Source of the DNA: a virus | Taxonomy: Duplodnaviria > Heunggongvirae > Uroviricota > Caudoviricetes | Direction: 5' to 3' (one strand) | Virus record (IMG/VR): IMGVR_UViG_2541047775_000007 | DNA: 43,098 nucleotides | In this document: piece by piece, positions 1-43,098 of the stretch | Layout of the letters: each line of letters opens with the position of its first letter | How positions within the stretch are numbered: position 1 is the stretch's first letter | The notes under the pieces: model-generated | Database searches by the model: none | What the model saw: only the letters and a program-made list of their open reading frames with translations | What the model was told of the DNA's origin: nothing | Program-made: the position numbers and the translations under genes

Positions 1-1127
<1,127 letters not shown>

Positions 1128-2239: not shown

Positions 2240-2950
2240 CGCCTATAAGGCTCTCTTACCAGCCGCGCCCTAACAGGCGCACACGATCTGACATTTGCAT
2301 CCAACTTCGTTACTTACGGCCCGTAAACGGGCTGCCCGGATAGGGAATCGATAACTGCTCTCCCATTTTATCCTCTTCAAGCTGGTGCTTTATGTAATCC
2401 TGTATCTTCGCCGTGTTCTTACCCACTGTATCGACGTAGTACCCTCTGCACCAGAACTCCCTGTTCCTGTATTTGAATTTCAAATCACCAAACTGCTCGT
2501 AAAGCATCAGACTGCTTTTCCCTTTCAGATATCCCATAAACCCGGATACGCTCATTTTAGGCGGGATCTCCACAAGCATATGGATATGATCTGCACAGCA
2601 TTCAGCTTCCAGAATCCGTACGCTTTTCCACTCACACAGCTTTCTCAAAATACTGCCTATTGCTCTACGCTTCTCTCTGTAGAACACCTGTCTTCGGTAT
2701 TTTGGCGCAAAAACTATGTGATATTTACAGTTCCATCGGGTGTGCGCTAAGCTCTTTTCGTTCCCCATTGGGACCCCCTTTTGATTTCTTGTTTGACACT
2801 TGCAGTTGCCAGACCGCAAGGTGTTTTAACAAATCAAAAGGGGTTTTAATAACTGGCTCAAAGCTGAAAGCTTTCCGGAACCCCCAGCCTAGCTGGGGGT
2901 TTTCTGTGCACAAAAAACCCTCTGTAGTAACAGAGGGTTTTGTTCATTCA
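2240..2950 (-). mobile_element. IS200-like insertion sequence (boundaries approximate)
   Basis: Y1/HUH transposase ORF plus two strong hairpins upstream of it (acccccagc/gctgggggt near 2886-2908 and aaaccctctg/cagagggttt near 2908-2938), typical of the IS200 left-end structured region; ends not mapped precisely. Confidence 0.6.
2310..2768 (-). CDS. tnpA: IS200/IS605 family Y1 transposase TnpA (about 152 aa)
   Basis: Translation MGNEKSLAHTRWNCKYHIVFAPKYRR...HIHMLVEIPP...YIKHQLEEDK is recognisable as IS200 TnpA; ORF-track start at 2819 is probably an upstream extension. Confidence 0.88.
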   Translation of the reverse strand: MGNEKSLAHTRWNCKYHIVFAPKYRRQVFYREKRRAIGSILRKLCEWKSVRILEAECCADHIHMLVEIPPKMSVSGFMGYLKGKSSLMLYEQFGDLKFKYRNREFWCRGYYVDTVGKNTAKIQDYIKHQLEEDKMGEQLSIPYPGSPFTGRK

Positions 2951-3090
2951 TAGTGCAGGGTCAAATCATTCCCACTCAATTATTTACGATAACCATAACC
3001 AATTGAGTGATAACATTTTTCCAAATCTCAATTTTTATCGTACCGTTTTATATACCGTCACCGGAAATCAGTACCATGAAAAATGCCATG

Positions 3091-3573
3091 CTATCTGGTC
3101 AGGGTGTCGTACTGTTTTTCACAGACTCTTCCGGCTTCGGCTGCCCGGTCAGCATACTCTGCCAGTTGTCTGTTTCTCTCGAGAGATTTACTGAGCACGT
3201 CGGCAAGCAAAACTCCGGTGTCTGCGGCTGACGTCCCAGCGCCGACAATGGCGTTATACTGCCTGAGCTGCTCACGGATGGCAACGAGCTGTTGCTGCAA
3301 CCGGCCAGCGCGAGCGGCAGCATCAAGAGCATCATTGCGCGCCTGGTCGATCCTCTGCTGCGCTTCACGTTCATTGATCGCTTTCTCCTGTTCGTAGTGC
3401 TGACGAATTCTCTCATCTTCGGTTTTGCGGTCTTCTTTCGCCTGCGCATACCCGGCGTCGTACTGACGACTGCCGTGTACACTCCAGGCAACAACTCCTG
3501 ATATGACCAGAACAGCAAGCACCGCCATGATAATCAACTGTTTCCGGTATGCTTTTACGAATGCCCAGATCAT
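3091..3573 (-). CDS. Rz-like i-spanin (160 aa)
   Basis: N-terminal TM helix, then charged coiled-coil; directly downstream of and overlapping the endolysin gene (ATGA overlap). Confidence 0.7.
3099..3335 (-). CDS. Rz1-like o-spanin lipoprotein embedded in the +1 frame of Rz
   Basis: Inside the 3099..3518 [16 protein letters not shown] gives a signal peptide with lipobox followed by a Pro-rich short mature peptide; fully embedded in Rz in a different frame. Confidence 0.5.
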   Translation of the reverse strand: MMLLMLPLALAGCSNSSLPSVSSSGSITPLSALGRQPQTPEFCLPTCSVNLSRETDNWQSMLTGQPKPEESVKNSTTP

Positions 3574-4199
3574 ACCGCCAGCACCTTACTGGCATTGATG
3601 TATCGCGCGCGCCGGTCGTCGATGCCGTTCCGGCCACCATTGATAATCAGAGTTACACGTGCAATATCGCCGGTATACTTCATGCATCCTTTGCTGGCAA
3701 AGAACCACGCCGCGCTACGAGCCGCGTATTCGTCCTGCGCCAGCAGTTCAGGACTCTCCAGCAGGTCAACCTTAAGACCGTTTCCACAGTCACGATAGTT
3801 ATTCAAACCGGTAACCTGGATAAGCCCGCGCCCACGGTAGTTCCAGCCATCACCAGGGGCATTGTTCCCCATGCGTTTGCTGTACACCAGATTGGCAATC
3901 GCTCTCTGGCGCTCAAGTGGCAATGGTGGTTCGCCTGCACGTCGCCCCAATGCGTTGGCCTGTCCCTGAGTGAGACGCCCAGCCCGAACAAAGTTAGCCA
4001 GTCCGCTGACGCTGTAGTTGAAATTCTCCTGCAACCGGGTGAAGCCTCCAGACTCATGCCCGACCTGAGCAATAAACATAGCCTGATCTTCTGGTTTGCT
4101 GATACCAAACTCTTTCATCGCAGAAGTTATATGCGAGAACCAGCGTGCGGCCAGTGCCTCGCTGATACCAGCAGCTCGCTGGAATTGTTTAATCTCCAT
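3570..4199 (-). CDS. endolysin, glycoside hydrolase family 19 (chitinase-like) type
   Basis: Motifs [20 protein letters not shown] are characteristic of GH19 phage endolysins; no N-terminal hydrophobic SAR segment. Confidence 0.88.
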
Positions 4200-4497
4200 G
4201 TTTAGACCTCGATACTTTGAAAATTTGAACGACGTTACCGCGCGTTTTAATAACCGCAGCTAGCATGACAGCGTTGATAATGACCTCAGATAAATCCACA
4301 GCCATTGGCGTACGTAACCAGATTGCATAGGCGACACGAACAGGAATACTGGCCGCAGCAACAATCAGGAAATAAGCAAGCCATCCTCCCCACCTTCGGT
4401 GTTGAGAGCCGTTACGCCGGAATGTGACAACGCGAATTGCTATGCCAGTGCAAATAACTGCATTGGTGATAAGCAAAAAAAACTCATGCGTTACCAT
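4189..4497 (-). CDS. holin-like membrane protein (3 predicted TM helices, charged C-terminus)
   Basis: Hydrophobic segments and C-terminal [19 protein letters not shown] tail; overlaps endolysin start. Confidence 0.5.
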
Positions 4498-4897
4498 CGT
4501 CTTTTCTCCCCGGAATTAACTCGCGTGGATTATCGGAACGGTGATAGAGCCATATACCAATACGCACAGCGACAATTGCTGACACGAATGCGCCTGCAGA
4601 GAAAACAATCCCTTTTTCAAAAGAGTCCTGCGTGATGGTAGGGATCAGGCTGGCTATGCCGATAAGAATTGATGCTGCTGGTTTGTAAAAGAGAAGGCCG
4701 CAAAGAAAGCTGAGCATCGACAGGAGCACCCGGCGACGGATGGGGTACTCTACTGCAGAGGTAACAAAAATTACCGCTCCAGCCAAAGCACCCAAAGCAA
4801 CCTCAGGAGGAACTCCTGCTATCACCGCCGCCAGAGAACTCATGCTAAGCCACTGATTTAAAGTTTCACTGGTTAGTTGAGCTGACATGTTTTCCAC
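4484..4897 (-). CDS. holin/antiholin-like membrane protein (3-4 TM helices)
   Basis: RBS ggtgga before ATG; multiple hydrophobic helices and charged C-terminal tail; sits upstream of the holin-like gene and endolysin. Confidence 0.5.
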   Translation of the reverse strand: MENMSAQLTSETLNQWLSMSSLAAVIAGVPPEVALGALAGAVIFVTSAVEYPIRRRVLLSMLSFLCGLLFYKPAASILIGIASLIPTITQDSFEKGIVFSAGAFVSAIVAVRIGIWLYHRSDNPRELIPGRKDDGNA

Positions 4898-5090
4898 CGT
4901 TTATATGCATAACAACCTCCTGAACAGTAAAGCATTACGCATAATAAACCATTTATGGTTTTTTGTTACTTTAACATCGTCAATTCCCTGTTTTTCATGC
5001 CGAGAATAAAGCTCACCTTTTACATGACTCTGAAGAAACAAACAGTGAAGAGCAGGTTGAATACCGCACCATTTAATGGCGCGGTAGCAG

Positions 5091-5387
5091 TCAAATAGAG
5101 AAATAAACACAAAAACAAAAAACAACAGGAACAGCAAAATCCAACAGACTTCCCACATCCCACACGCGTGGATCAAAACCTCCCCACCACGGCATGTTGA
5201 TACGTTTCCCTTTCCCAAACTTTTCTATCCAGCGATATTCTGCCTGGGTGTGTTCACGCGCAATGAAGAACGTACAACCGGCTATCGCACCGTAAGCCCA
5301 GTTTCCGGTAAAAATACCAACCAGTACCTGAGCCACAAAAGCGCAAAGCGAGTGAAGAAATGGAGTGACATCAATGCTCTTAATCAT
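5091..5387 (-). CDS. small membrane protein (98 aa), translationally coupled to the tailspike gene
   Basis: Start codon overlaps tailspike stop (ATGA); 2-3 hydrophobic segments. Confidence 0.5.
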   Translation of the reverse strand: MIKSIDVTPFLHSLCAFVAQVLVGIFTGNWAYGAIAGCTFFIAREHTQAEYRWIEKFGKGKRINMPWWGGFDPRVWDVGSLLDFAVPVVFCFCVYFSI

Positions 5388-7573
5388 GAAACTTCCCCAT
5401 TGGTTGAAAATATGGCTCCTCCAACGCCAAGTGTATTTCGTGTTGTGCTCAACCTCAGAGGGCTGGAGTCAGAATTAGAATATCCTGTAGCAGAAATAAA
5501 AGATCCTCCACTAATAGTCAACTGCGGAACATCGGCTATATCTGAATAAGTTCTGTCAGCAACAGTATTATTTATAGCCACATATGATCCAAAAAAACTT
5601 CTTATTGTTTGGTTTTTAACTTTACTTCCTTCAATGGTTATCCTACTACCACAGTCGGCAATAAATCCTGAATCTGCATCCAGCGTTGCATTCATAAAAG
5701 AAGCTTCAGATCTCTCTACATCAATCCATCTAATATCTTTTGTGGGATTTGCACCAAATACATGACAAATATTAGAGTTAAACCTTACACCATCTTGGAG
5801 GTGCATTAATTTTTTTATATCTGTACCCCATAGCCTTGGAAAATTAACAGATGCTCCTGCATGGCAATCAAATCCCAGCTCAGCCCCTGAGATATCTACA
5901 GCCTTTCCTGAAATAACAGCACCAGTGTCTGCATTAACGGCTGTTCCACAATTGCGCATATCATTACCAGCAACATCAACGCAACCCGCACCATCAATAC
6001 GCACACCAAGTGCACATCCATAAAAACCTTTTTCAATATTTGGTTCAAGGACTTTACCACTTGTTTCTGCATCACTTTCTTCAACGTCATGTCGTCTTGC
6101 ATCAACATATGCTGTATGAATGCAGGTTAATCCACGATATGAGCAATGTATAGTTTTATGGTCGCGTATATTAACATTTGAACCATCTCTTACATTCCAT
6201 CCTATATAACAATAGCTTGCACTTGACCCCTGAAAATCTGCTTTAACATTATAAATACAATTAACTGACGCAACCGTACTCTCTGTGCACCGTTCAAACT
6301 TGCTTACAGGCATTGATGCCTTGACATTATTTACCAGTTGCAGGGAAGAGTATCTGCTATAAGAAAAATCACATACGTAATACCCTTCTGGCATATATGC
6401 AGCAACACTTTCCTCATCAGGAGCACATCCGGTATGATATGCACTAATTTTTGCACCAAAACTACCATGAATTCCAACGTAGAACTTTCGAGCACCTGAA
6501 TACGGATAGAAATTAAGTTCAGCTTTTTGAGTTACAATAAATGCACAAACATCGCTATCATCTCTATTTTCTTCGATCTGAATAGCAAATACAGGACTTT
6601 TTGCTGCATCGCAAATGTAAAATAAATACTTGTATTCGTAATACGTTCTAACGATTTTAGTAAACAAACGAGTGTCAGAGAAAACCACTGAGTCTTCTGA
6701 TGTTATTTTAATCCAAGACAAATCAACACCTGAACTGAATTCAATTTGATAGTTGATAATATGCCCGGTCTTAATTCTTATTTCGCAGAAAGCATTACCA
6801 CCATCCCACATAGGTCTCATTGACTGGGCTGCAATGATTGCATCTTTGAGTGTAGGGTAATCACCCCATTCGCCAACAGTAATAACAAAAGTATAATATG
6901 AGTTAAAAACAGCGGCATTTTTGCCTTTGGATATCAACTCCTTAATCATAAAAATATTATCTTCGTAATCACAAGGAGAAATTATATCCCTCATTTTGCT
7001 TTGAAATGTTCGTTGTCTTGCCCCGCTTCCTGACGGTATAAACCAACCAAAACCACCAACAACCCCGGCGATTGCAGCATCGACATAATTACGCATTGAG
7101 CGATTATTTACAGCATCCTGCTCAAGTGATGGATCTGCAAGGTTAGAAATTCTGTTTTGCTTTGCATCGTAATATTTTGCAAGCAGAGAGGGCTTCATCA
7201 ATGCACGTCTGAACCACCCAAAACATTGCTGGATCAGCATCGTCAGGTAGTCAAAGGCATCTTCATGCACTTCGGGGAAAAATTTTCCCTGATTGCGAAG
7301 GTCTGTCTCCTGCACTACATCAAGCACACGATCTATCGTAATTCGCCATCCAGTAGCAAGCGGAGACGGAAGAACCACAGAACCGCCACTATAAGTGCCC
7401 GCCCCAGTTACCGTATAACCGGTATCCAGGACCAATTCTGTTACGTTCCCGTTCAGGTCAGACACCTGAACAACCAGGTCTGATTTTCTGAAAATTCGAA
7501 AAGTATACGGAAACGATGTCGTAACGCCGTTACCGGTGTATTCGTTGTGGTCAACTTCGGTTGAGACCGTCAT
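5384..7573 (-). CDS. tailspike / tail fibre with conserved N-terminal virion-attachment domain and probable beta-helix receptor-binding/depolymerase body (729 aa)
   Basis: N-terminus MTVSTEVDHNEYTGNGVTTSFPYTFRIFRKSDLVV matches the conserved podovirus tail-fibre/tailspike N-domain motif; AT-rich body with many Cys and Asn/Gly repeats; RBS ggag before ATG. Confidence 0.8.
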   Translation of the reverse strand: MTVSTEVDHNEYTGNGVTTSFPYTFRIFRKSDLVVQVSDLNGNVTELVLDTGYTVTGAGTYSGGSVVLPSPLATGWRITIDRVLDVVQETDLRNQGKFFPEVHEDAFDYLTMLIQQCFGWFRRALMKPSLLAKYYDAKQNRISNLADPSLEQDAVNNRSMRNYVDAAIAGVVGGFGWFIPSGSGARQRTFQSKMRDIISPCDYEDNIFMIKELISKGKNAAVFNSYYTFVITVGEWGDYPTLKDAIIAAQSMRPMWDGGNAFCEIRIKTGHIINYQIEFSSGVDLSWIKITSEDSVVFSDTRLFTKIVRTYYEYKYLFYICDAAKSPVFAIQIEENRDDSDVCAFIVTQKAELNFYPYSGARKFYVGIHGSFGAKISAYHTGCAPDEESVAAYMPEGYYVCDFSYSRYSSLQLVNNVKASMPVSKFERCTESTVASVNCIYNVKADFQGSSASYCYIGWNVRDGSNVNIRDHKTIHCSYRGLTCIHTAYVDARRHDVEESDAETSGKVLEPNIEKGFYGCALGVRIDGAGCVDVAGNDMRNCGTAVNADTGAVISGKAVDISGAELGFDCHAGASVNFPRLWGTDIKKLMHLQDGVRFNSNICHVFGANPTKDIRWIDVERSEASFMNATLDADSGFIADCGSRITIEGSKVKNQTIRSFFGSYVAINNTVADRTYSDIADVPQLTISGGSFISATGYSNSDSSPLRLSTTRNTLGVGGAIFSTNGEVS

Positions 7574-7677
7574 GTTAAATCTCCAGATAGTCGCAGCACC
7601 CGTTGCGCCGCATATCTGGTTATTCTATTACCTGAAAAACCACATATGGATAAAAAGGCTGTAAATACGAATAGATA

Positions 7678-7692
7678 TTACCTTTCAGGTAA
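7678..7692. promoter_or_regulatory. operator-like palindrome TTACCTTTCAGGTAA (motif A)
   Basis: Perfect 5-bp inverted repeat with 5-bp spacer; one member of a family of at least 13 near-identical sites. Confidence 0.6.
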
Positions 7693-7729
7693 TTTGCAAA
7701 ACGTGCTGGATAGCAAACAAATTATTTGC

Positions 7730-7749
7730 TACTGTATAAATATACAGTT
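7730..7749. promoter_or_regulatory. LexA (SOS) box TACTGTATAAATATACAGTT
   Basis: CTGT-N8-ACAG core at 7732-7747 with AT-rich spacer, 18/20 match to the E. coli LexA consensus; 20 bp upstream of the start codon at 7769. Confidence 0.75.
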
Positions 7750-7768
7750 ATTGCATGGAGAAGATAAG

Positions 7769-8026
7769 ATGCAGCGGTATCACTATCCACTGGAAGACGG
7801 ATTTACCGAAAGGATTCACACGCCGGGAGGCGTCAGGTCACTGGTGGAGGGATCGCACTTGATGAAATTACTCCGGGATCTCGATAAGGATGGATTTAAT
7901 GTCGATGGCCCACTTGCCGAACTGACTGCACTGATTAACTACGTTACCAGCTCACAGATGTCTATGCGGGATCTGCAAACACATCTCGACTATTGTGCCG
8001 AACAATTACGAAAACAAACCCGGTAA
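7769..8026 (+). CDS. small antirepressor-like protein (85 aa), paralog of the C-terminal domain of the 9177..9833 antirepressor
   Basis: RBS ggag 8 nt before ATG; sequence aligns with the Ant C-terminus (shared GV..L.E.S.LM.LL..L..DG..V.G..AELT....Y......RD.QTH..Y); LexA box immediately upstream. Confidence 0.65.
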   Translation: MQRYHYPLEDGFTERIHTPGGVRSLVEGSHLMKLLRDLDKDGFNVDGPLAELTALINYVTSSQMSMRDLQTHLDYCAEQLRKQTR

Positions 8027-8797: not shown

Positions 8798-8812
8798 TTA
8801 CCTTAAAGGTAA
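8798..8812. promoter_or_regulatory. operator-like palindrome TTACCTTAAAGGTAA (motif A)
   Basis: Perfect palindrome 21 bp upstream of the minus-strand start at 8777. Confidence 0.6.
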
Positions 8813-8861
8813 TATCTTGCTTTCAGGTGATCAAGCGTTAAACGCAATCAACCAAATACGG

Positions 8862-8905
8862 TTGATTTTAATATTTCTTCGCGTTTATCATTACCTTTGC
8901 GGTAA
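8862..8905 (+). promoter_or_regulatory. candidate promoter (TTGATT -35) with overlapping operator TTACCTTTGCGGTAA (8891-8905)
   Basis: -35-like hexamer followed by a motif A palindrome; lies about 270 bp upstream of the antirepressor gene. Confidence 0.45.
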
Positions 8906-9906: not shown

Positions 9907-9921
9907 TTACCTTAAAGGTAA
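9907..9921. promoter_or_regulatory. operator-like palindrome TTACCTTAAAGGTAA (motif A)
   Basis: Identical to the 8798 site; 27 bp upstream of the start at 9948. Confidence 0.6.
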
Positions 9922-23886: not shown

Positions 23887-24879
23887 TTACACCACGCGGG
23901 CTTCTGTTTCCAGAAGCGCATCAGTTTCACGGATTGGTACACCACGGAATGACGTCCACCACTCGCCTTCAGTCTCTTTTACGCTAATCGCCAGAGATGT
24001 TTTCTCCAGAGACTGCAGATCAAGAGCCTGGCCTACAGTGCGGTTCATGTAGAACACCGGGCGACCCATGCCACGGTTTGGAATGCGATGCAGTGCTTTA
24101 ACCATCAACTTCGCAATATTTGCGGCAGAGGAAGGTTCTGAAAGATTGCTGACATCGATGTTTGCAATGCGAACAACATAACGCCAGTCACGCAGAGCAA
24201 GTCCGTTATCCCATTTGTAATGGGTGCGATAGCCTTCGTACTTGCCGCCATTAGCATCTTCCAGTGTCACCTGGCCTTTATCTTCCATCTGGATGCCAGC
24301 CTTCTGCCCTTTCGGGAAGATGCCATGCACGGTGTTTTCGCCCCACACTACTAACCAGATTGAGGTGTTATCTGTACCCGTGCCACCAGCATCAATGATG
24401 TTCTGAGCATTACCCGCAGACAGGCTGGAATAGCGGGAGGACAGTCCCATAAACTGCTGAGGGTTAACGCTGGAATCACCATAAAACAGTGTCTGCGCCA
24501 TCTGCTGATTCATCGCTTCAATAAATGCGCGGTCTTCAGACAGGCGGAATTCGGCGGTATTACCGTTCAGATCAGCCAGTGACTTATCGACTTCAGCATA
24601 GGTTTCCAGCATTCCAACGGAATCGGTGACCTGCACTGTGGTTGATTTGCTTGGCTGTACGCCATAGTTCAGCAAACGCCAGGTGGCTGAAGGTAAACCA
24701 GAACGAATGGTGGTTCGGTGTCCGGTAGGAAGGTTCCCTTCGACAAAAGGCATATCCTGAAGGATCGGGTTAGTTTGACCGAGAAGCTCGATAATCTTAT
24801 CGACTTTCCCGTTTGGATCGACGCGCTTACCCCAGTCAGCCAGCGTTAGCGCAGTTAAGCCTTTAACAGCCATTGTCAT
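23887..24879 (-). CDS. major capsid protein (330 aa)
   Basis: Size and position after the scaffold gene; resembles about 330-aa podovirus (epsilon15-like) coat proteins. Confidence 0.7.
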   Translation of the reverse strand: MTMAVKGLTALTLADWGKRVDPNGKVDKIIELLGQTNPILQDMPFVEGNLPTGHRTTIRSGLPSATWRLLNYGVQPSKSTTVQVTDSVGMLETYAEVDKSLADLNGNTAEFRLSEDRAFIEAMNQQMAQTLFYGDSSVNPQQFMGLSSRYSSLSAGNAQNIIDAGGTGTDNTSIWLVVWGENTVHGIFPKGQKAGIQMEDKGQVTLEDANGGKYEGYRTHYKWDNGLALRDWRYVVRIANIDVSNLSEPSSAANIAKLMVKALHRIPNRGMGRPVFYMNRTVGQALDLQSLEKTSLAISVKETEGEWWTSFRGVPIRETDALLETEARVV

Positions 24880-27779: not shown

Positions 27780-27847
27780 ATCAATGACTCCGTACGCAAT
27801 TAAATTATTACCAATTTAACCACATATGATTTATTTATCGTAGATAG

Positions 27848-27884
27848 TTGACATTTAACGCACAAATTATTACCTTTAAGGTAA
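27848..27884 (+). promoter_or_regulatory. promoter-like TTGACA (27848-27853) with operator TTACCTTTAAGGTAA (27870-27884)
   Basis: Consensus -35 hexamer followed by a motif A palindrome, pointing toward the tRNA island. Confidence 0.5.
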
Positions 27885-31012: not shown

Positions 31013-31054
31013 AACCACCCTGGTAATTGTTACCGTCGTGGTAATAGTAACATG

Positions 31055-34748: not shown

Positions 34749-34825
34749 TTACCTCTAAGGTAATTAAAAACCACATAAGACACGAAATCAATAGAGTTTA
34801 GAATATTTTGTTACCCAACAGGTAA
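34749..34825. promoter_or_regulatory. two operator palindromes TTACCTCTAAGGTAA (34749-34763) and TTACCCAACAGGTAA (34811-34825)
   Basis: Motif A sites in the intergenic region between the P-like gene and the DUF1064 gene; first site overlaps the RBS. Confidence 0.55.
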
Positions 34826-36676: not shown

Positions 36677-36756
36677 GGTAAGCCCTGTTATTGGTATTGG
36701 GATTACGGTTATTTTGTGCTGACACAAAAAAAAGATCAACCATATTTGGTTTTTTA

Positions 36757-37093: not shown

Positions 37094-37156
37094 TCACCTA
37101 TAAGGTAACAAAAATCAAGGATAGTTACCCATGAGGTGCATTTACCTGTTGGGTAA
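37094..37156. promoter_or_regulatory. immunity-region operator cluster: TCACCTATAAGGTAA (37094-37108), TTACCCATGAGGTGC (37125-37139), TTACCTGTTGGGTAA (37142-37156)
   Basis: Three motif A sites between divergent Cro-like and repressor genes (OR1-3-like arrangement). Confidence 0.65.
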
Positions 37157-37853: not shown

Positions 37854-37930
37854 TTACCTAACGGGTAATTTTTTTAACTCATATCTATTGACATCAAACC
37901 AGATACGCATAATTATTACCTCAACGGTAA
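37854..37930 (+). promoter_or_regulatory. PL-like promoter region: operator TTACCTAACGGGTAA (37854-37868), TTGACA (37888-37893), operator TTACCTCAACGGTAA (37916-37930)
   Basis: Consensus -35 flanked by two motif A palindromes upstream of the plus-strand early operon. Confidence 0.55.
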
Positions 37931-41010: not shown

Positions 41011-41653
41011 GAAATACACGCTAATCTATGCAGATCCACCATGGGTATACCGGGACAAAGCCGCAGATGGTAATCGCGGTGCCGGTTTTAAATATCCAGT
41101 TATGAGTGTGCTGGATATCTGCCGCCTTCCTGTGTGGGATTTGACCGCTGAAAACTGTCTGTTGGCCATGTGGTGGGTGCCAACACAACCACTCGAAGCA
41201 CTAAAAGTTGTTGAAGCCTGGGGATTTCGTCTGATGACCATGAAGGGCTTCACGTGGATAAAATGTGGTAGTCGACAACCAGATAAACTGGTTATGGGTA
41301 TGGGACACATGACTCGCGCCAATAGTGAAGATTGCCTGTTTGCAGTAAAGGGAAAACTACCTACGCGCATTAATGCAGGGATCGTTCAGTCATTTACCGC
41401 ACCGCGGCTTGAGCATTCAAGAAAACCAGATATTGTTCGTGAAAAACTTGTGCAATTGTTAGGCGATGTTTCTCGCATTGAACTATTCGCCCGCCAGACG
41501 TCTCATGGCTTCGATGTTTGGGGTAATCAGTGCGAAGACCCGGCAGTGCAACTACACCCTGGATACGCGTTGGATATTGCCGGATTAACAAATGCATTCA
41601 GCAATGCTCCGCTGTCACCAACAGACAACCAGGGGCGGGAGCGTGCAGCATGA
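41003..41653 (+). CDS. MT-A70 family DNA N6-adenine methyltransferase (216 aa), orphan
   Basis: Catalytic signature IYADPPW near N-terminus; no adjacent restriction endonuclease. Confidence 0.8.
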   Translation: MTKKYTLIYADPPWVYRDKAADGNRGAGFKYPVMSVLDICRLPVWDLTAENCLLAMWWVPTQPLEALKVVEAWGFRLMTMKGFTWIKCGSRQPDKLVMGMGHMTRANSEDCLFAVKGKLPTRINAGIVQSFTAPRLEHSRKPDIVREKLVQLLGDVSRIELFARQTSHGFDVWGNQCEDPAVQLHPGYALDIAGLTNAFSNAPLSPTDNQGRERAA

Positions 41654-41850: not shown

Positions 41851-43098
41851 TTATCCCGCCATCCACTTCTCAAACTTCGACGGGGAGAACGGAATCAGAT
41901 CCGTATGCTCCCCGTCAATCCAGGAATCAATCATATCGGCCCACTGCTGCAACATGTAGGCGCGCTGTCTGGCGTATTCCGCTTTGTTATATACGGCGCG
42001 CACACCTTTCTGCTCATGTGCCAGAGCCTTTTCAATCCAGTCTGAAGGATAACCAGCCTCATGCAACAACGTACTTGCTGTACGGCGCATATCGTGTACG
42101 GTGAAGCCCTGAATATGCTCACCATCTTCATTTATTATTTTCACCGTTCTGTCGATCAGAGAGTTCAGCGCGGCATTAGATAATGGCTTCCGGAAATTGT
42201 AACGACCAGGAACCAGATATTCACTTCCACCAGCGCACATCTGCAACCCGACCAATATATCCTGAGCCTGTTTAGGCAGGTAAATAACGTGCGCCCGGCT
42301 TCCCTTCATGCGGTCTGAAGGAATTGTCCATGTCCATTTTTTAAAATCTATTTCATCCCACGTTGCGTTGGTGAATTCGCCTTTACGAACCATAGTGATA
42401 AGCACCAGCTTTAAAGCCATTTTCATAGTGCCCATAGCACCAATGGCATCCAGCGTGCGGAAGAACAGGCCAATTTCTTCTGGTGTCAGTGTTCGCTCTC
42501 GTGGTTTAAATATGGCGATAGACGAAGGTTTAATGTCAGCCGCAGGATTAAACAAACCATGACCACGGTCATTGGCGTGACGGTATACGCTGCTGATGAT
42601 CTCCCTGGCCTGTACTGCTGTTGCCCGACCACCGCGTTCGACAATCCGGTCACACAAATCACGAACCATCGATGTGGTAATTTCAGCCATCATTTTGTTG
42701 CCAAGAACCGGAAGTATGTCACGGTCGATCACCGCCTGCTTCATTGCGCGGGTACTGTCAGCCAGGATGACGTGTTTCATATAACTGTCGGTATGTACCG
42801 CAAACGTCTCAGCACCACGAATCTTTTTGATACCGTCACGTTTAGCCGCAGCCGGTGACTGGCCTGCTTTAAGCAGCTTCTTTGCAGCAATCAGTTCTTC
42901 CCGCGCTTCTGCCAGGCTGATACCGTCACGCCCATACTGCCCGATTACCAGTGTTTCGCGGCGACCGTTGATACGGTAGTCATAGCGAAACGAGACCGTG
43001 CCTGACGTAAGCACAGCTACATACAGCCCGTCACGATCGGAGACCTTGTACAGTTTGTCCTGCGGCTTGAGGTTTTTTAATTTTGTATCGGTAAGCAC
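41851..43098 (-). CDS. int: tyrosine integrase, P4-type (N-terminus at or 1-2 codons beyond window end)
   Basis: N-terminal LTDTKLKNLKP...LYVAV arm-binding pattern and C-terminal catalytic region with R...H..R...Y spacing typical of P4-like integrases. Confidence 0.85.
   Translation of the reverse strand: MLTDTKLKNLKPQDKLYKVSDRDGLYVAVLTSGTVSFRYDYRINGRRETLVIGQYGRDGISLAEAREELIAAKKLLKAGQSPAAAKRDGIKKIRGAETFAVHTDSYMKHVILADSTRAMKQAVIDRDILPVLGNKMMAEITTSMVRDLCDRIVERGGRATAVQAREIISSVYRHANDRGHGLFNPAADIKPSSIAIFKPRERTLTPEEIGLFFRTLDAIGAMGTMKMALKLVLITMVRKGEFTNATWDEIDFKKWTWTIPSDRMKGSRAHVIYLPKQAQDILVGLQMCAGGSEYLVPGRYNFRKPLSNAALNSLIDRTVKIINEDGEHIQGFTVHDMRRTASTLLHEAGYPSDWIEKALAHEQKGVRAVYNKAEYARQRAYMLQQWADMIDSWIDGEHTDLIPFSPSKFEKWMAG

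Follow-up and report, generated by a model that had tools for sequence, protein, structure and literature searches.

How are the genes between the tailspike gene and the prophage edge organised in the IMG/VR virus record IMGVR_UViG_2541047775_000007, and which of them take part in lysis? The whole record, a stretch of 43,098 nucleotides, was analysed and is called here the window. An initial annotation had described positions 3091-5387 as a lysis cassette with three holin or antiholin candidates, coupled to the tailspike gene at the end of the late operon and atypical for a lambdoid phage. Sequence comparison indicates that the prophage is a Uetakevirus of the epsilon15/phiV10 type and not a lambdoid phage. 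We consider it very likely that region 3091-4897 is the canonical lysis cassette of this genus, probably a transcription unit of its own, and that the 98-amino-acid (aa) membrane protein encoded upstream, hereafter p98, stands outside it. The lysis cassette as such is already known, since it is annotated in epsilon15, phiV10, and SPN1S and the structure of an endolysin orthologue has been solved. The value of the analysis lies in the corrected reading, in which the phage is not lambdoid, the lysis genes belong next to attP, and two membrane proteins, not three, are part of the cassette.

The lysis cassette and its place in the prophage

The tailspike gene, the p98 gene, and all the lysis genes are on the minus strand of the window. 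The cassette consists of the following genes, given in the order of transcription:

4484..4888, minus strand: gp23-like membrane protein, 134 aa from the ATG at 4888 (137 aa if the in-frame GTG at 4897 is used)
4189..4497, minus strand: gp24-like holin, 102 aa, with a 14-nt overlap with the gene of the 134-aa protein
3570..4199, minus strand: GH19 endolysin, 209 aa, with an 11-nt overlap with the holin gene
3091..3573, minus strand: Rz-type i-spanin, 160 aa, whose start overlaps the endolysin stop as ATGA
3099..3374, minus strand: o-spanin of the Rz1 type, 91 aa, its gene entirely within that of Rz, +1 frame

The two holin-like proteins, the GH19 endolysin, and the Rz with an embedded lipoprotein Rz1 that the initial annotation had named from the sequence are all present, as judged from matches in Pfam, PHROG, and the PDB and from the lipobox. 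The 134-aa protein matches PF16931 Phage_holin_8 with 46.6 bits (gathering cutoff 26.4) and phrog_198, and the hydropathy profile gives three hydrophobic segments and a charged C-terminal tail. For the 102-aa protein, the match is to PF05449 Phage_holin_3_7 (94.2 bits, gathering cutoff 25.4) and phrog_217; its three transmembrane (TM) segments, strongly basic TM1-TM2 loop, and basic C-terminus in the hydropathy profile correspond to a predicted topology that fits an N-out, C-in holin. The family of the 102-aa protein is present in 229 phage records (Ralstonia, Pseudomonas, Klebsiella, and others), mostly without a partner of the 134-aa type, whereas the 134-aa family was found in just 37 phage records, every one with the cassette. 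The 102-aa protein would therefore be the core holin and the 134-aa protein a second holin or antiholin specific to the lineage.

The endolysin matches PF00182 GH19 (35.2 bits, cutoff 25.5), phrog_181, and, over residues 1-208, the SPN1S endolysin in PDB entry 4OK7 (E=1.7e-116). No window of its hydropathy profile reached 1.2, that is, neither a signal nor a signal-arrest-release segment was detected; the SPN1S enzyme, an orthologue in a sister phage, is likewise soluble and without a membrane segment. Rz matches DUF2514 (E=1.9e-41) and phrog_312 and has an N-terminal TM segment at residues 14-32. Within it, the start of Rz1 comes 199 nt after that of Rz and its end 8 nt ahead of the Rz stop; Rz1 is preceded by the Shine-Dalgarno (SD) sequence AGGAGA 7 nt upstream of its start codon. 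Its lipobox, LAG/C, places Cys26 at the N-terminus of a mature protein of 66 aa with 8 Pro and a Ser (non-Asp) at +2, and the protein matches phrog_11621 (E=1.2e-39). The gene is conserved across phages, and its product is a putative lipoprotein. Rz1 spans 0.41 to 0.98 of the Rz length, and a Rz1-type placement of this kind falls in the range of about 70% of embedded spanins (PMC6139136). The pair resembles Rz/Rz1 of lambda in that the i-spanin has its TM segment at the N-terminus and the o-spanin is a lipoprotein embedded in the +1 frame; however, it belongs to another sequence family (DUF2514/phrog_312), and the mature Rz1 of lambda has 40 aa.

The same five genes, in the same order and on the same strand, are annotated in the RefSeq records of epsilon15 and phiV10 (gp23, gp24, endolysin, Rz, Rz1; p27-p30a), and the overlaps of 14, 11, and 4 nt and the embedded 276-nt Rz1 gene in the +1 frame are identical in the three phages. 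The proteins are also well conserved: the 134-aa protein is 94% identical to phiV10p27 and 93% to epsilon15 gp23, the holin 81% and 82% identical to its counterparts in phiV10 and epsilon15, the endolysin 97% and 84%, the Rz 92% and 86%, and Rz1 96% identical to phiV10p30a and 88% to the Rz1 of epsilon15, both of which are annotated. By megablast, Escherichia phage HEMP4 is 99.3% identical across 99% of positions 2900-7700, and the lysis genes have 82-96% nucleotide identity to those of phiv142-3, vB_EcoP_ZX5, TL-2011b, phiV10, epsilon15, SPN1S, and others, all of them Uetakevirus.

The gene order of the genus, as seen in epsilon15 and phiV10, is tailspike, a variable slot, gp23, gp24, endolysin, Rz/Rz1, attP, and int, such that the cassette stands directly before the attP features and then int. 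Its placement here is the same, and two elements lie at the prophage end:

2963-2979, no strand assigned: att core AATCATTCCCACTCAAT, the reverse complement of attgagtgggaatgatt, at the prophage end, 111 bp past the Rz stop
2912..2944, minus strand: hairpin on the host side of the att core, with UUUUUUG after it; RNA fold of -18.3 kcal/mol, z = -5.1

The sequence attgagtgggaatgatt has been reported as the attP core of phiV10, epsilon15, and vB_EcoP_ZX5 (PMC9782041). At the opposite end of the window, an open reading frame (ORF) of 415 aa (41851..43098) was identified as int from its position and length alone; the int gene of phiV10 has 1251 nt. The lysis genes thus lie at the prophage edge, as had been noticed, because attP sits between Rz and int in Uetakevirus. 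The layout does differ from that of lambda, so the earlier remark that it is atypical stands to that extent, but it is standard in the genus to which this prophage belongs. Beyond the att core, the host DNA carries the hairpin with its U-run, IS200, yfgI, and yfgH, and in the prophage state the lysis transcript probably terminates at this hairpin.

Transcription of the tailspike gene, p98, and the lysis genes

Between the tailspike and the cassette we distinguished the following features:

5384..7573, minus strand: tailspike, 729 aa, matching phrog_5662 over its full length; given as context, outside the cassette
5091..5387, minus strand: p98, a three-helix membrane protein of 98 aa, phrog_1443
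5062..5086, minus strand: stem-loop TACCGCACCATTTAATGGCGCGGTA, 4 nt after the p98 stop, with an 11-bp stem and a 3-nt loop
4941..4969, minus strand: promoter-like region GTAACA-17-TATTAT from a consensus scan, with AACCATAAATGGTT at 4947-4960 in its spacer
4866..4910, minus strand: out-of-frame mini-ORF of 14 codons across the start of the first lysis gene, with CAGGAGG-N5-ATG

The ATG of p98 overlaps the TGA of the tailspike gene as ATGA at 5387-5384, and in this respect the coupling described in the initial annotation was correct. It does not extend to the lysis genes, which follow a hairpin and a conserved promoter-like block. The gap that separates them from p98 (5090..4898) has 193 bp, or 202 bp up to the ATG at 4888, and is AT-rich, as had been stated, with a GC content of 38% vs 49% for the prophage. 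It begins with the stem-loop, which folds as RNA with -17.5 kcal/mol (z = -4.3), has no U-tract, and is kept, with a G-U to G-C change, in other Uetakeviruses that carry p98; other hairpins, unrelated to it, follow the relatives of p98 in other types of phages. The stem-loop would mark the 3' end of a tailspike-p98 unit, with an efficiency of termination that is uncertain. For the motif B palindrome that the initial annotation had placed in the gap, two palindromes there come into question. The stem-loop was rejected as this motif, given that the window has no second copy of it and that its half-site shows no enrichment. The motif is probably AACCATAAATGGTT at 4947-4960, a perfect palindrome of the family AACCA-N4-TGGTT, which has 13 strand-hits in the window vs 0.70 expected.

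The tailspike gene and the lysis genes of epsilon15 and phiV10 are kept apart by conversion genes on the opposite strand, and a terminator is annotated behind the tailspike gene in the epsilon15 record; therefore, in these phages the lysis cassette must have its own promoter. As the architecture here is the same, two units are suggested, one formed by the tailspike gene, p98, and the hairpin, and the other by the promoter, the lysis genes, att, and the host terminator, so that here too the cassette is probably transcribed as a unit of its own. Both phiV10 and epsilon15 conserve the block at about 4969 to 4888; a similar AACCA palindrome sequence is kept upstream of epsilon15 gp23, and phiV10 has a perfect TATAAT 7 nt downstream of the palindrome. 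In the window, AACCA-N4-TGGTT lies about 60-65 bp upstream of the starts of both the tailspike gene and the first lysis gene (65 bp for the tailspike copy at 7638), and it is also found upstream of head genes.

Several points weigh against this reading of the cassette. At the position of the phiV10 TATAAT, the -10 sequence here is CGTAAT, which is weak, and the promoter scan gave 6 sites vs 9.8 in shuffled sequence, such that the promoter call is a consensus match only. As the stem-loop after p98 lacks a U-tract, read-through from the tailspike gene into the lysis genes is possible. Distribution and topology are, moreover, the sole basis on which holin and antiholin were told apart.

From what is established on holins, endolysins, and spanins, a course of lysis may be proposed. 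The lysis transcript would start at the promoter-like block of the gap with its AACCA-N4-TGGTT palindrome and, in the prophage, end at the host terminator past the att core. The 102-aa holin with three TM segments would build up in the inner membrane and then trigger, while the 134-aa membrane protein would modulate it, either as a second holin or as an antiholin. The soluble GH19 endolysin would cross the holin holes and cut the peptidoglycan, and the spanin complex formed by Rz and Rz1 would disrupt the outer membrane.

The SD sequence of the mini-ORF at 4866..4910 is the strongest in the region. Both this sequence and the ATG are kept in phiV10 and epsilon15, but not the length and frame of the peptide (6 and 12 codons, respectively), and the mini-ORF may be a device for ribosome loading or coupling.

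Sequence and family of p98

The hydropathy profile and an AlphaFold model (pLDDT 93, built from 101 homologues) agree on three helices in p98, at residues 8-27, 30-57, and 78-97. All its Lys and Arg residues are in the N-terminus and in the loop 44-77, and by the positive-inside rule the protein is therefore predicted to be N-in, C-out, with the conserved motif described below at the cytoplasmic face. The chain ends inside helix 3 (...CFCVYFSI) without a charged C-terminal tail.

Searches for a known family gave little. There was no Pfam or NCBIfam match and no significant PADLOC match to p98, a profile search of PDB sequences returned 0 matches, fold searches with the AlphaFold model returned nothing specific or informative, and large homologue searches yielded only entries named "hypothetical protein". 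In PHROGs, the protein matches only phrog_1443 and phrog_34165, neither of known function. A Pfam scan of 78 distant relatives of p98, with E up to 1, gave scattered chance matches only, among them a weak match of one of the 78 to Phage_holin_8 (E=0.0036, below significance). The family is nevertheless large, with at least 2,283 clusters at 90% identity and 432 representatives at 50% identity, and residues H12, R44, E45, Q48, A49, E50, and W76 show no or almost no variation, even in members with 30-50% identity to p98. The genes are found mainly in temperate phages and prophages, and weaker relatives are present in large Aeromonas phages of about 235 kb.

Gene neighbourhood of p98 and its relatives

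In IMG/VR, 434 loci encode relatives of p98; the counts of synteny given here are from the best 80, and homologues of the lysis genes of the window were looked for up to 5 kb on each side. In 78 of the 80 loci, the nearest upstream ORF on the same strand is a tailspike or tail-fibre gene at a distance of -4 to +80 bp, and these upstream genes encode Uetakevirus tailspikes, P22-type Head_binding tailspikes, and fibres with an S74 chaperone. A homologue of the lysis genes was lacking in 62 of the loci; the remaining 18 have lysis genes downstream, and all 18 are Uetakeviruses. The tailspike of the window itself combines an N-terminal anchor of the Uetakevirus type with a receptor-binding domain that can be exchanged. 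In six loci, a P22-type Head_binding N-terminus is fused to this same receptor-binding domain (91%), followed by p98 (89%) with a 4-nt overlap; therefore, the domain and p98 have moved together between genera.

Phages outside the genus offer the same picture. A relative of p98 directly follows the tailspike gene in the P22-like phages Gally and 611R6 and follows tail-fibre genes in lambda-like phages such as 1H12. In the full genome of Gally, it is situated between the tailspike gene and int, and the holin, lysozyme, and Rz genes are about 17 kb away. A lambda-like Comamonas prophage has the p98 relative after a gpJ-type tail-tip gene, an Aeromonas prophage has it overlapping a P2/HP1-type tail-fibre gene, P2-like Comamonas prophages have it between the fibre genes and the sheath gene, and in an Aeromonas podophage it is 0.9 kb from a convergent tailspike gene. 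From this synteny, p98 is to be regarded as cargo linked to tail-fibre genes and not as a lysis gene.

The slot in which p98 is found is variable; it lies at the end of the tail module, and p98 is present or absent there among close relatives. Phages phiv142-3, EC.W1-9, and HEMP4 have, like this prophage, the 98-aa gene in the slot on the same strand, whereas in epsilon15 and phiV10 the slot between tailspike and cassette is occupied by O-antigen conversion genes on the opposite strand, namely those for the O-antigen polymerase and a polymerase inhibitor in epsilon15 (gp21/gp22) and oac in phiV10. The p98 protein is unrelated in sequence to gp21, gp22, and Oac, its gene is on the same strand as the receptor-binding-protein gene and overlaps it, and, unlike those conversion genes, it is conserved whatever the specificity of the receptor-binding protein. 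The gtrABC genes of P22 and the Z/fun region of P2 are comparable cargo slots after the gene of the receptor-binding protein. A review of tailspike modularity reports that, downstream of this gene, Lederberg- and Uetakeviruses have little similarity and that genes for O-antigen modification may be present there (PMC10408124). In the close relative phiv142-3, the p98 relative is orf5, and the tail-fibre gene directly upstream of it, orf6, was up-regulated in chicken serum in the lysogen and its deletion lowered growth in serum, and deleting orf6 or orf10 left the transcription of nearby downstream genes unchanged (data not shown in that report; PMC7724020).

Some loci deserve separate mention. 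In the P22-like phage vB_EcoP-611R6 (locus 3848-4291), the tailspike gene is followed by the gene of an OafA/YrhL O-acetylase, then by a tail-fibre remnant of 114 nt, and then by the p98 relative, and the remnant looks like a scar of p98 arriving with the 3' end of another tail-fibre gene. Two phages that are unrelated, Aeromonas phage 62AhydR11PP (2499-2996) and a Comamonas prophage (6970-7521), each have a gene for a protein of about 160 aa, phrog_3108, two genes from their p98 relative; outside the enterobacterial phages, this protein may be p98's partner. A 107-aa gene in the Comamonas P2-like locus was considered as a p98 paralogue paired with a second fibre and was rejected, as BLASTP gave no match.

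Possible roles of p98

The p98 gene is the last of the tailspike unit, and the protein most likely has an accessory function of the envelope or exclusion type, not one in the timing of lysis. The initial annotation had counted it as the third holin or antiholin candidate, which would mean that three membrane proteins set the time of lysis and that the cassette is translationally tied to the tailspike gene. We consider this highly improbable. It is true that p98 is small, membrane-embedded, and of three helices, that 193 bp separate its gene from the lysis genes downstream on the same strand, and that a holin gene can adjoin tail-fibre genes, as in T4; it also counts against our assignment that holins are very diverse, so that the absence of homology by itself leaves room for a membrane-permeabilising role. 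However, holins of Pfam or PHROGs do not match p98, it has no charged C-terminal tail, and its conserved polar residues are unlike those of holins. The gene neighbourhood speaks even more clearly, for 62 of the 80 loci lack lysis genes of the type found in the window in the up to 5 kb covered on each side, Gally has a complete lysis cassette of its own elsewhere, and epsilon15, phiV10, and SPN1S have the same cassette without p98. On family matches, C-terminal features, and synteny, p98 was rejected as a holin, and only two of the three candidates belong to the lysis system.

A different proposal is that p98 is a protein of lysogenic conversion or superinfection exclusion made in the lysogen, one that, for example, blocks genome entry or alters envelope biogenesis. 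It occupies the O-antigen conversion slot of epsilon15 and phiV10, the slot between tailspike and int in P22-like phages, and the one between fibre and sheath in P2-like prophages; a hairpin follows it in every context examined, it is carried mainly by temperate phages and prophages, and its distribution of charges gives an N-in topology. Yet the gene overlaps a late structural gene as ATGA, which speaks for its being translated together with the tailspike, and has neither a promoter-like site nor an A/B palindrome upstream, and late expression is therefore favoured over expression in the prophage. Its conservation of 77-100% beside receptor-binding proteins of unrelated specificity means that it is not a converter specific to a receptor type, and the weaker relatives in Aeromonas phages of about 235 kb and the lack of a significant PADLOC match do not favour the proposal either. 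On balance we hold it as a tentative possibility, with chances somewhat below even. Yet another role would be that of a late-expressed helper tied to the receptor-binding protein. Against the tailspike or fibre it might shield the producing cell or the progeny, or it might have a membrane function in the deployment or release of tail fibres, and p98 would on this account be inherited along with receptor-binding modules. Here belong the tight adjacency to the receptor-binding-protein gene on the same strand in four phage lineages, often with a 4-nt overlap, the transfer of p98 between Uetakevirus and P22-like phages jointly with the receptor-binding domain, and the position of p98 after the tail-fibre remnant of 611R6. 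No precedent for such a protein was found, though, many close relatives, such as epsilon15, phiV10, and SPN1S, are viable without p98, and the adjacency could reflect the usual site of cargo insertion at the ends of tail operons. We regard a helper role as rather unlikely.

Repeated palindromes in the window

The palindrome of the gap belongs to the first of two repeated elements:

4947-4960, 7638-7651, 8850-8863, 27818-27831, 36738-36751, 41424-41437: copies of AACCA-N4-TGGTT
7678-7692, 8798-8812, 8891-8905, 9907-9921, 27870-27884, 31030-31044: copies 1-6 of TTACC-N5-GGTAA
34749-34763, 34811-34825, 37142-37156, 37854-37868, 37916-37930: copies 7-11 of TTACC-N5-GGTAA

The 11 copies of TTACC-N5-GGTAA in the window are perfect, vs 0.04 expected, and the AACCA-N4-TGGTT copies at 7638, 8850, 27818, and 36738 sit 19-52 bp from one of these sites. 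The GenBank record of epsilon15 annotates TTACC-N5-GGTAA as the repressor-binding site, and AACCA-N4-TGGTT was for this reason rejected as the repressor operator; a literature search found no paper that defines the repressor operator of SPC32H. Copies of TTACC-N5-GGTAA precede several transcription units, beyond the immunity region too, and the repressor may control many units directly.

Upstream of the cassette (window 4990-5025), epsilon15 has a perfect TTACC-N5-GGTAA site (24704-24718) and phiV10 one with a single mismatch, and the site is degenerate here (TCATGTAAAAGGTGA). Between this degenerate TCATGTAAAAGGTGA and the AACCA palindrome there is an insertion of 19 bp, and the same state is found in phiv142-3 and CE0007a, which carry p98. 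Repressor control of the lysis unit may differ in the subgroup of phages with p98.

Host DNA beyond the att core

An IS200C tnpA gene (2310..2819) is located between yfgI and the att core. Beside it, on the minus strand at 2800-2901, there is a strong Rfam match (109 bits) to the Hfq-binding small RNA STnc490, the sole match in an Rfam scan of 2800-7800. A copy of IS200 is therefore present right at the phage attachment region. Farther out, an ORF of 326 aa (1..981) resembles what we take to be an IS5 transposase. The match to E. coli genomes bearing the prophage begins only at 1128, and yfgH is expected to start near 1089; therefore, IS5 seems to have removed the start of yfgH (window 1-1127 and about 1089-1607).

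Significance of the p98 family

The p98 family is the one item of this locus that could repay work, as it is conserved and moves with tail-fibre and tailspike modules across four lineages, the epsilon15-, P22-, lambda-, and P2-like phages of Enterobacteria, Aeromonas, and Comamonas. We suggest, with less than even confidence, that it constitutes a large unannotated family of three-helix inner-membrane proteins with a near-invariant H...RE..QAE...W motif, possibly a new and general type of accessory factor linked to receptor-binding proteins, for example one of superinfection exclusion or acting on the envelope, and not a lysis family. If p98 does act in exclusion or on the envelope, it would be relevant to predictions of host range and phage resistance that are made from the prophage content of bacteria.

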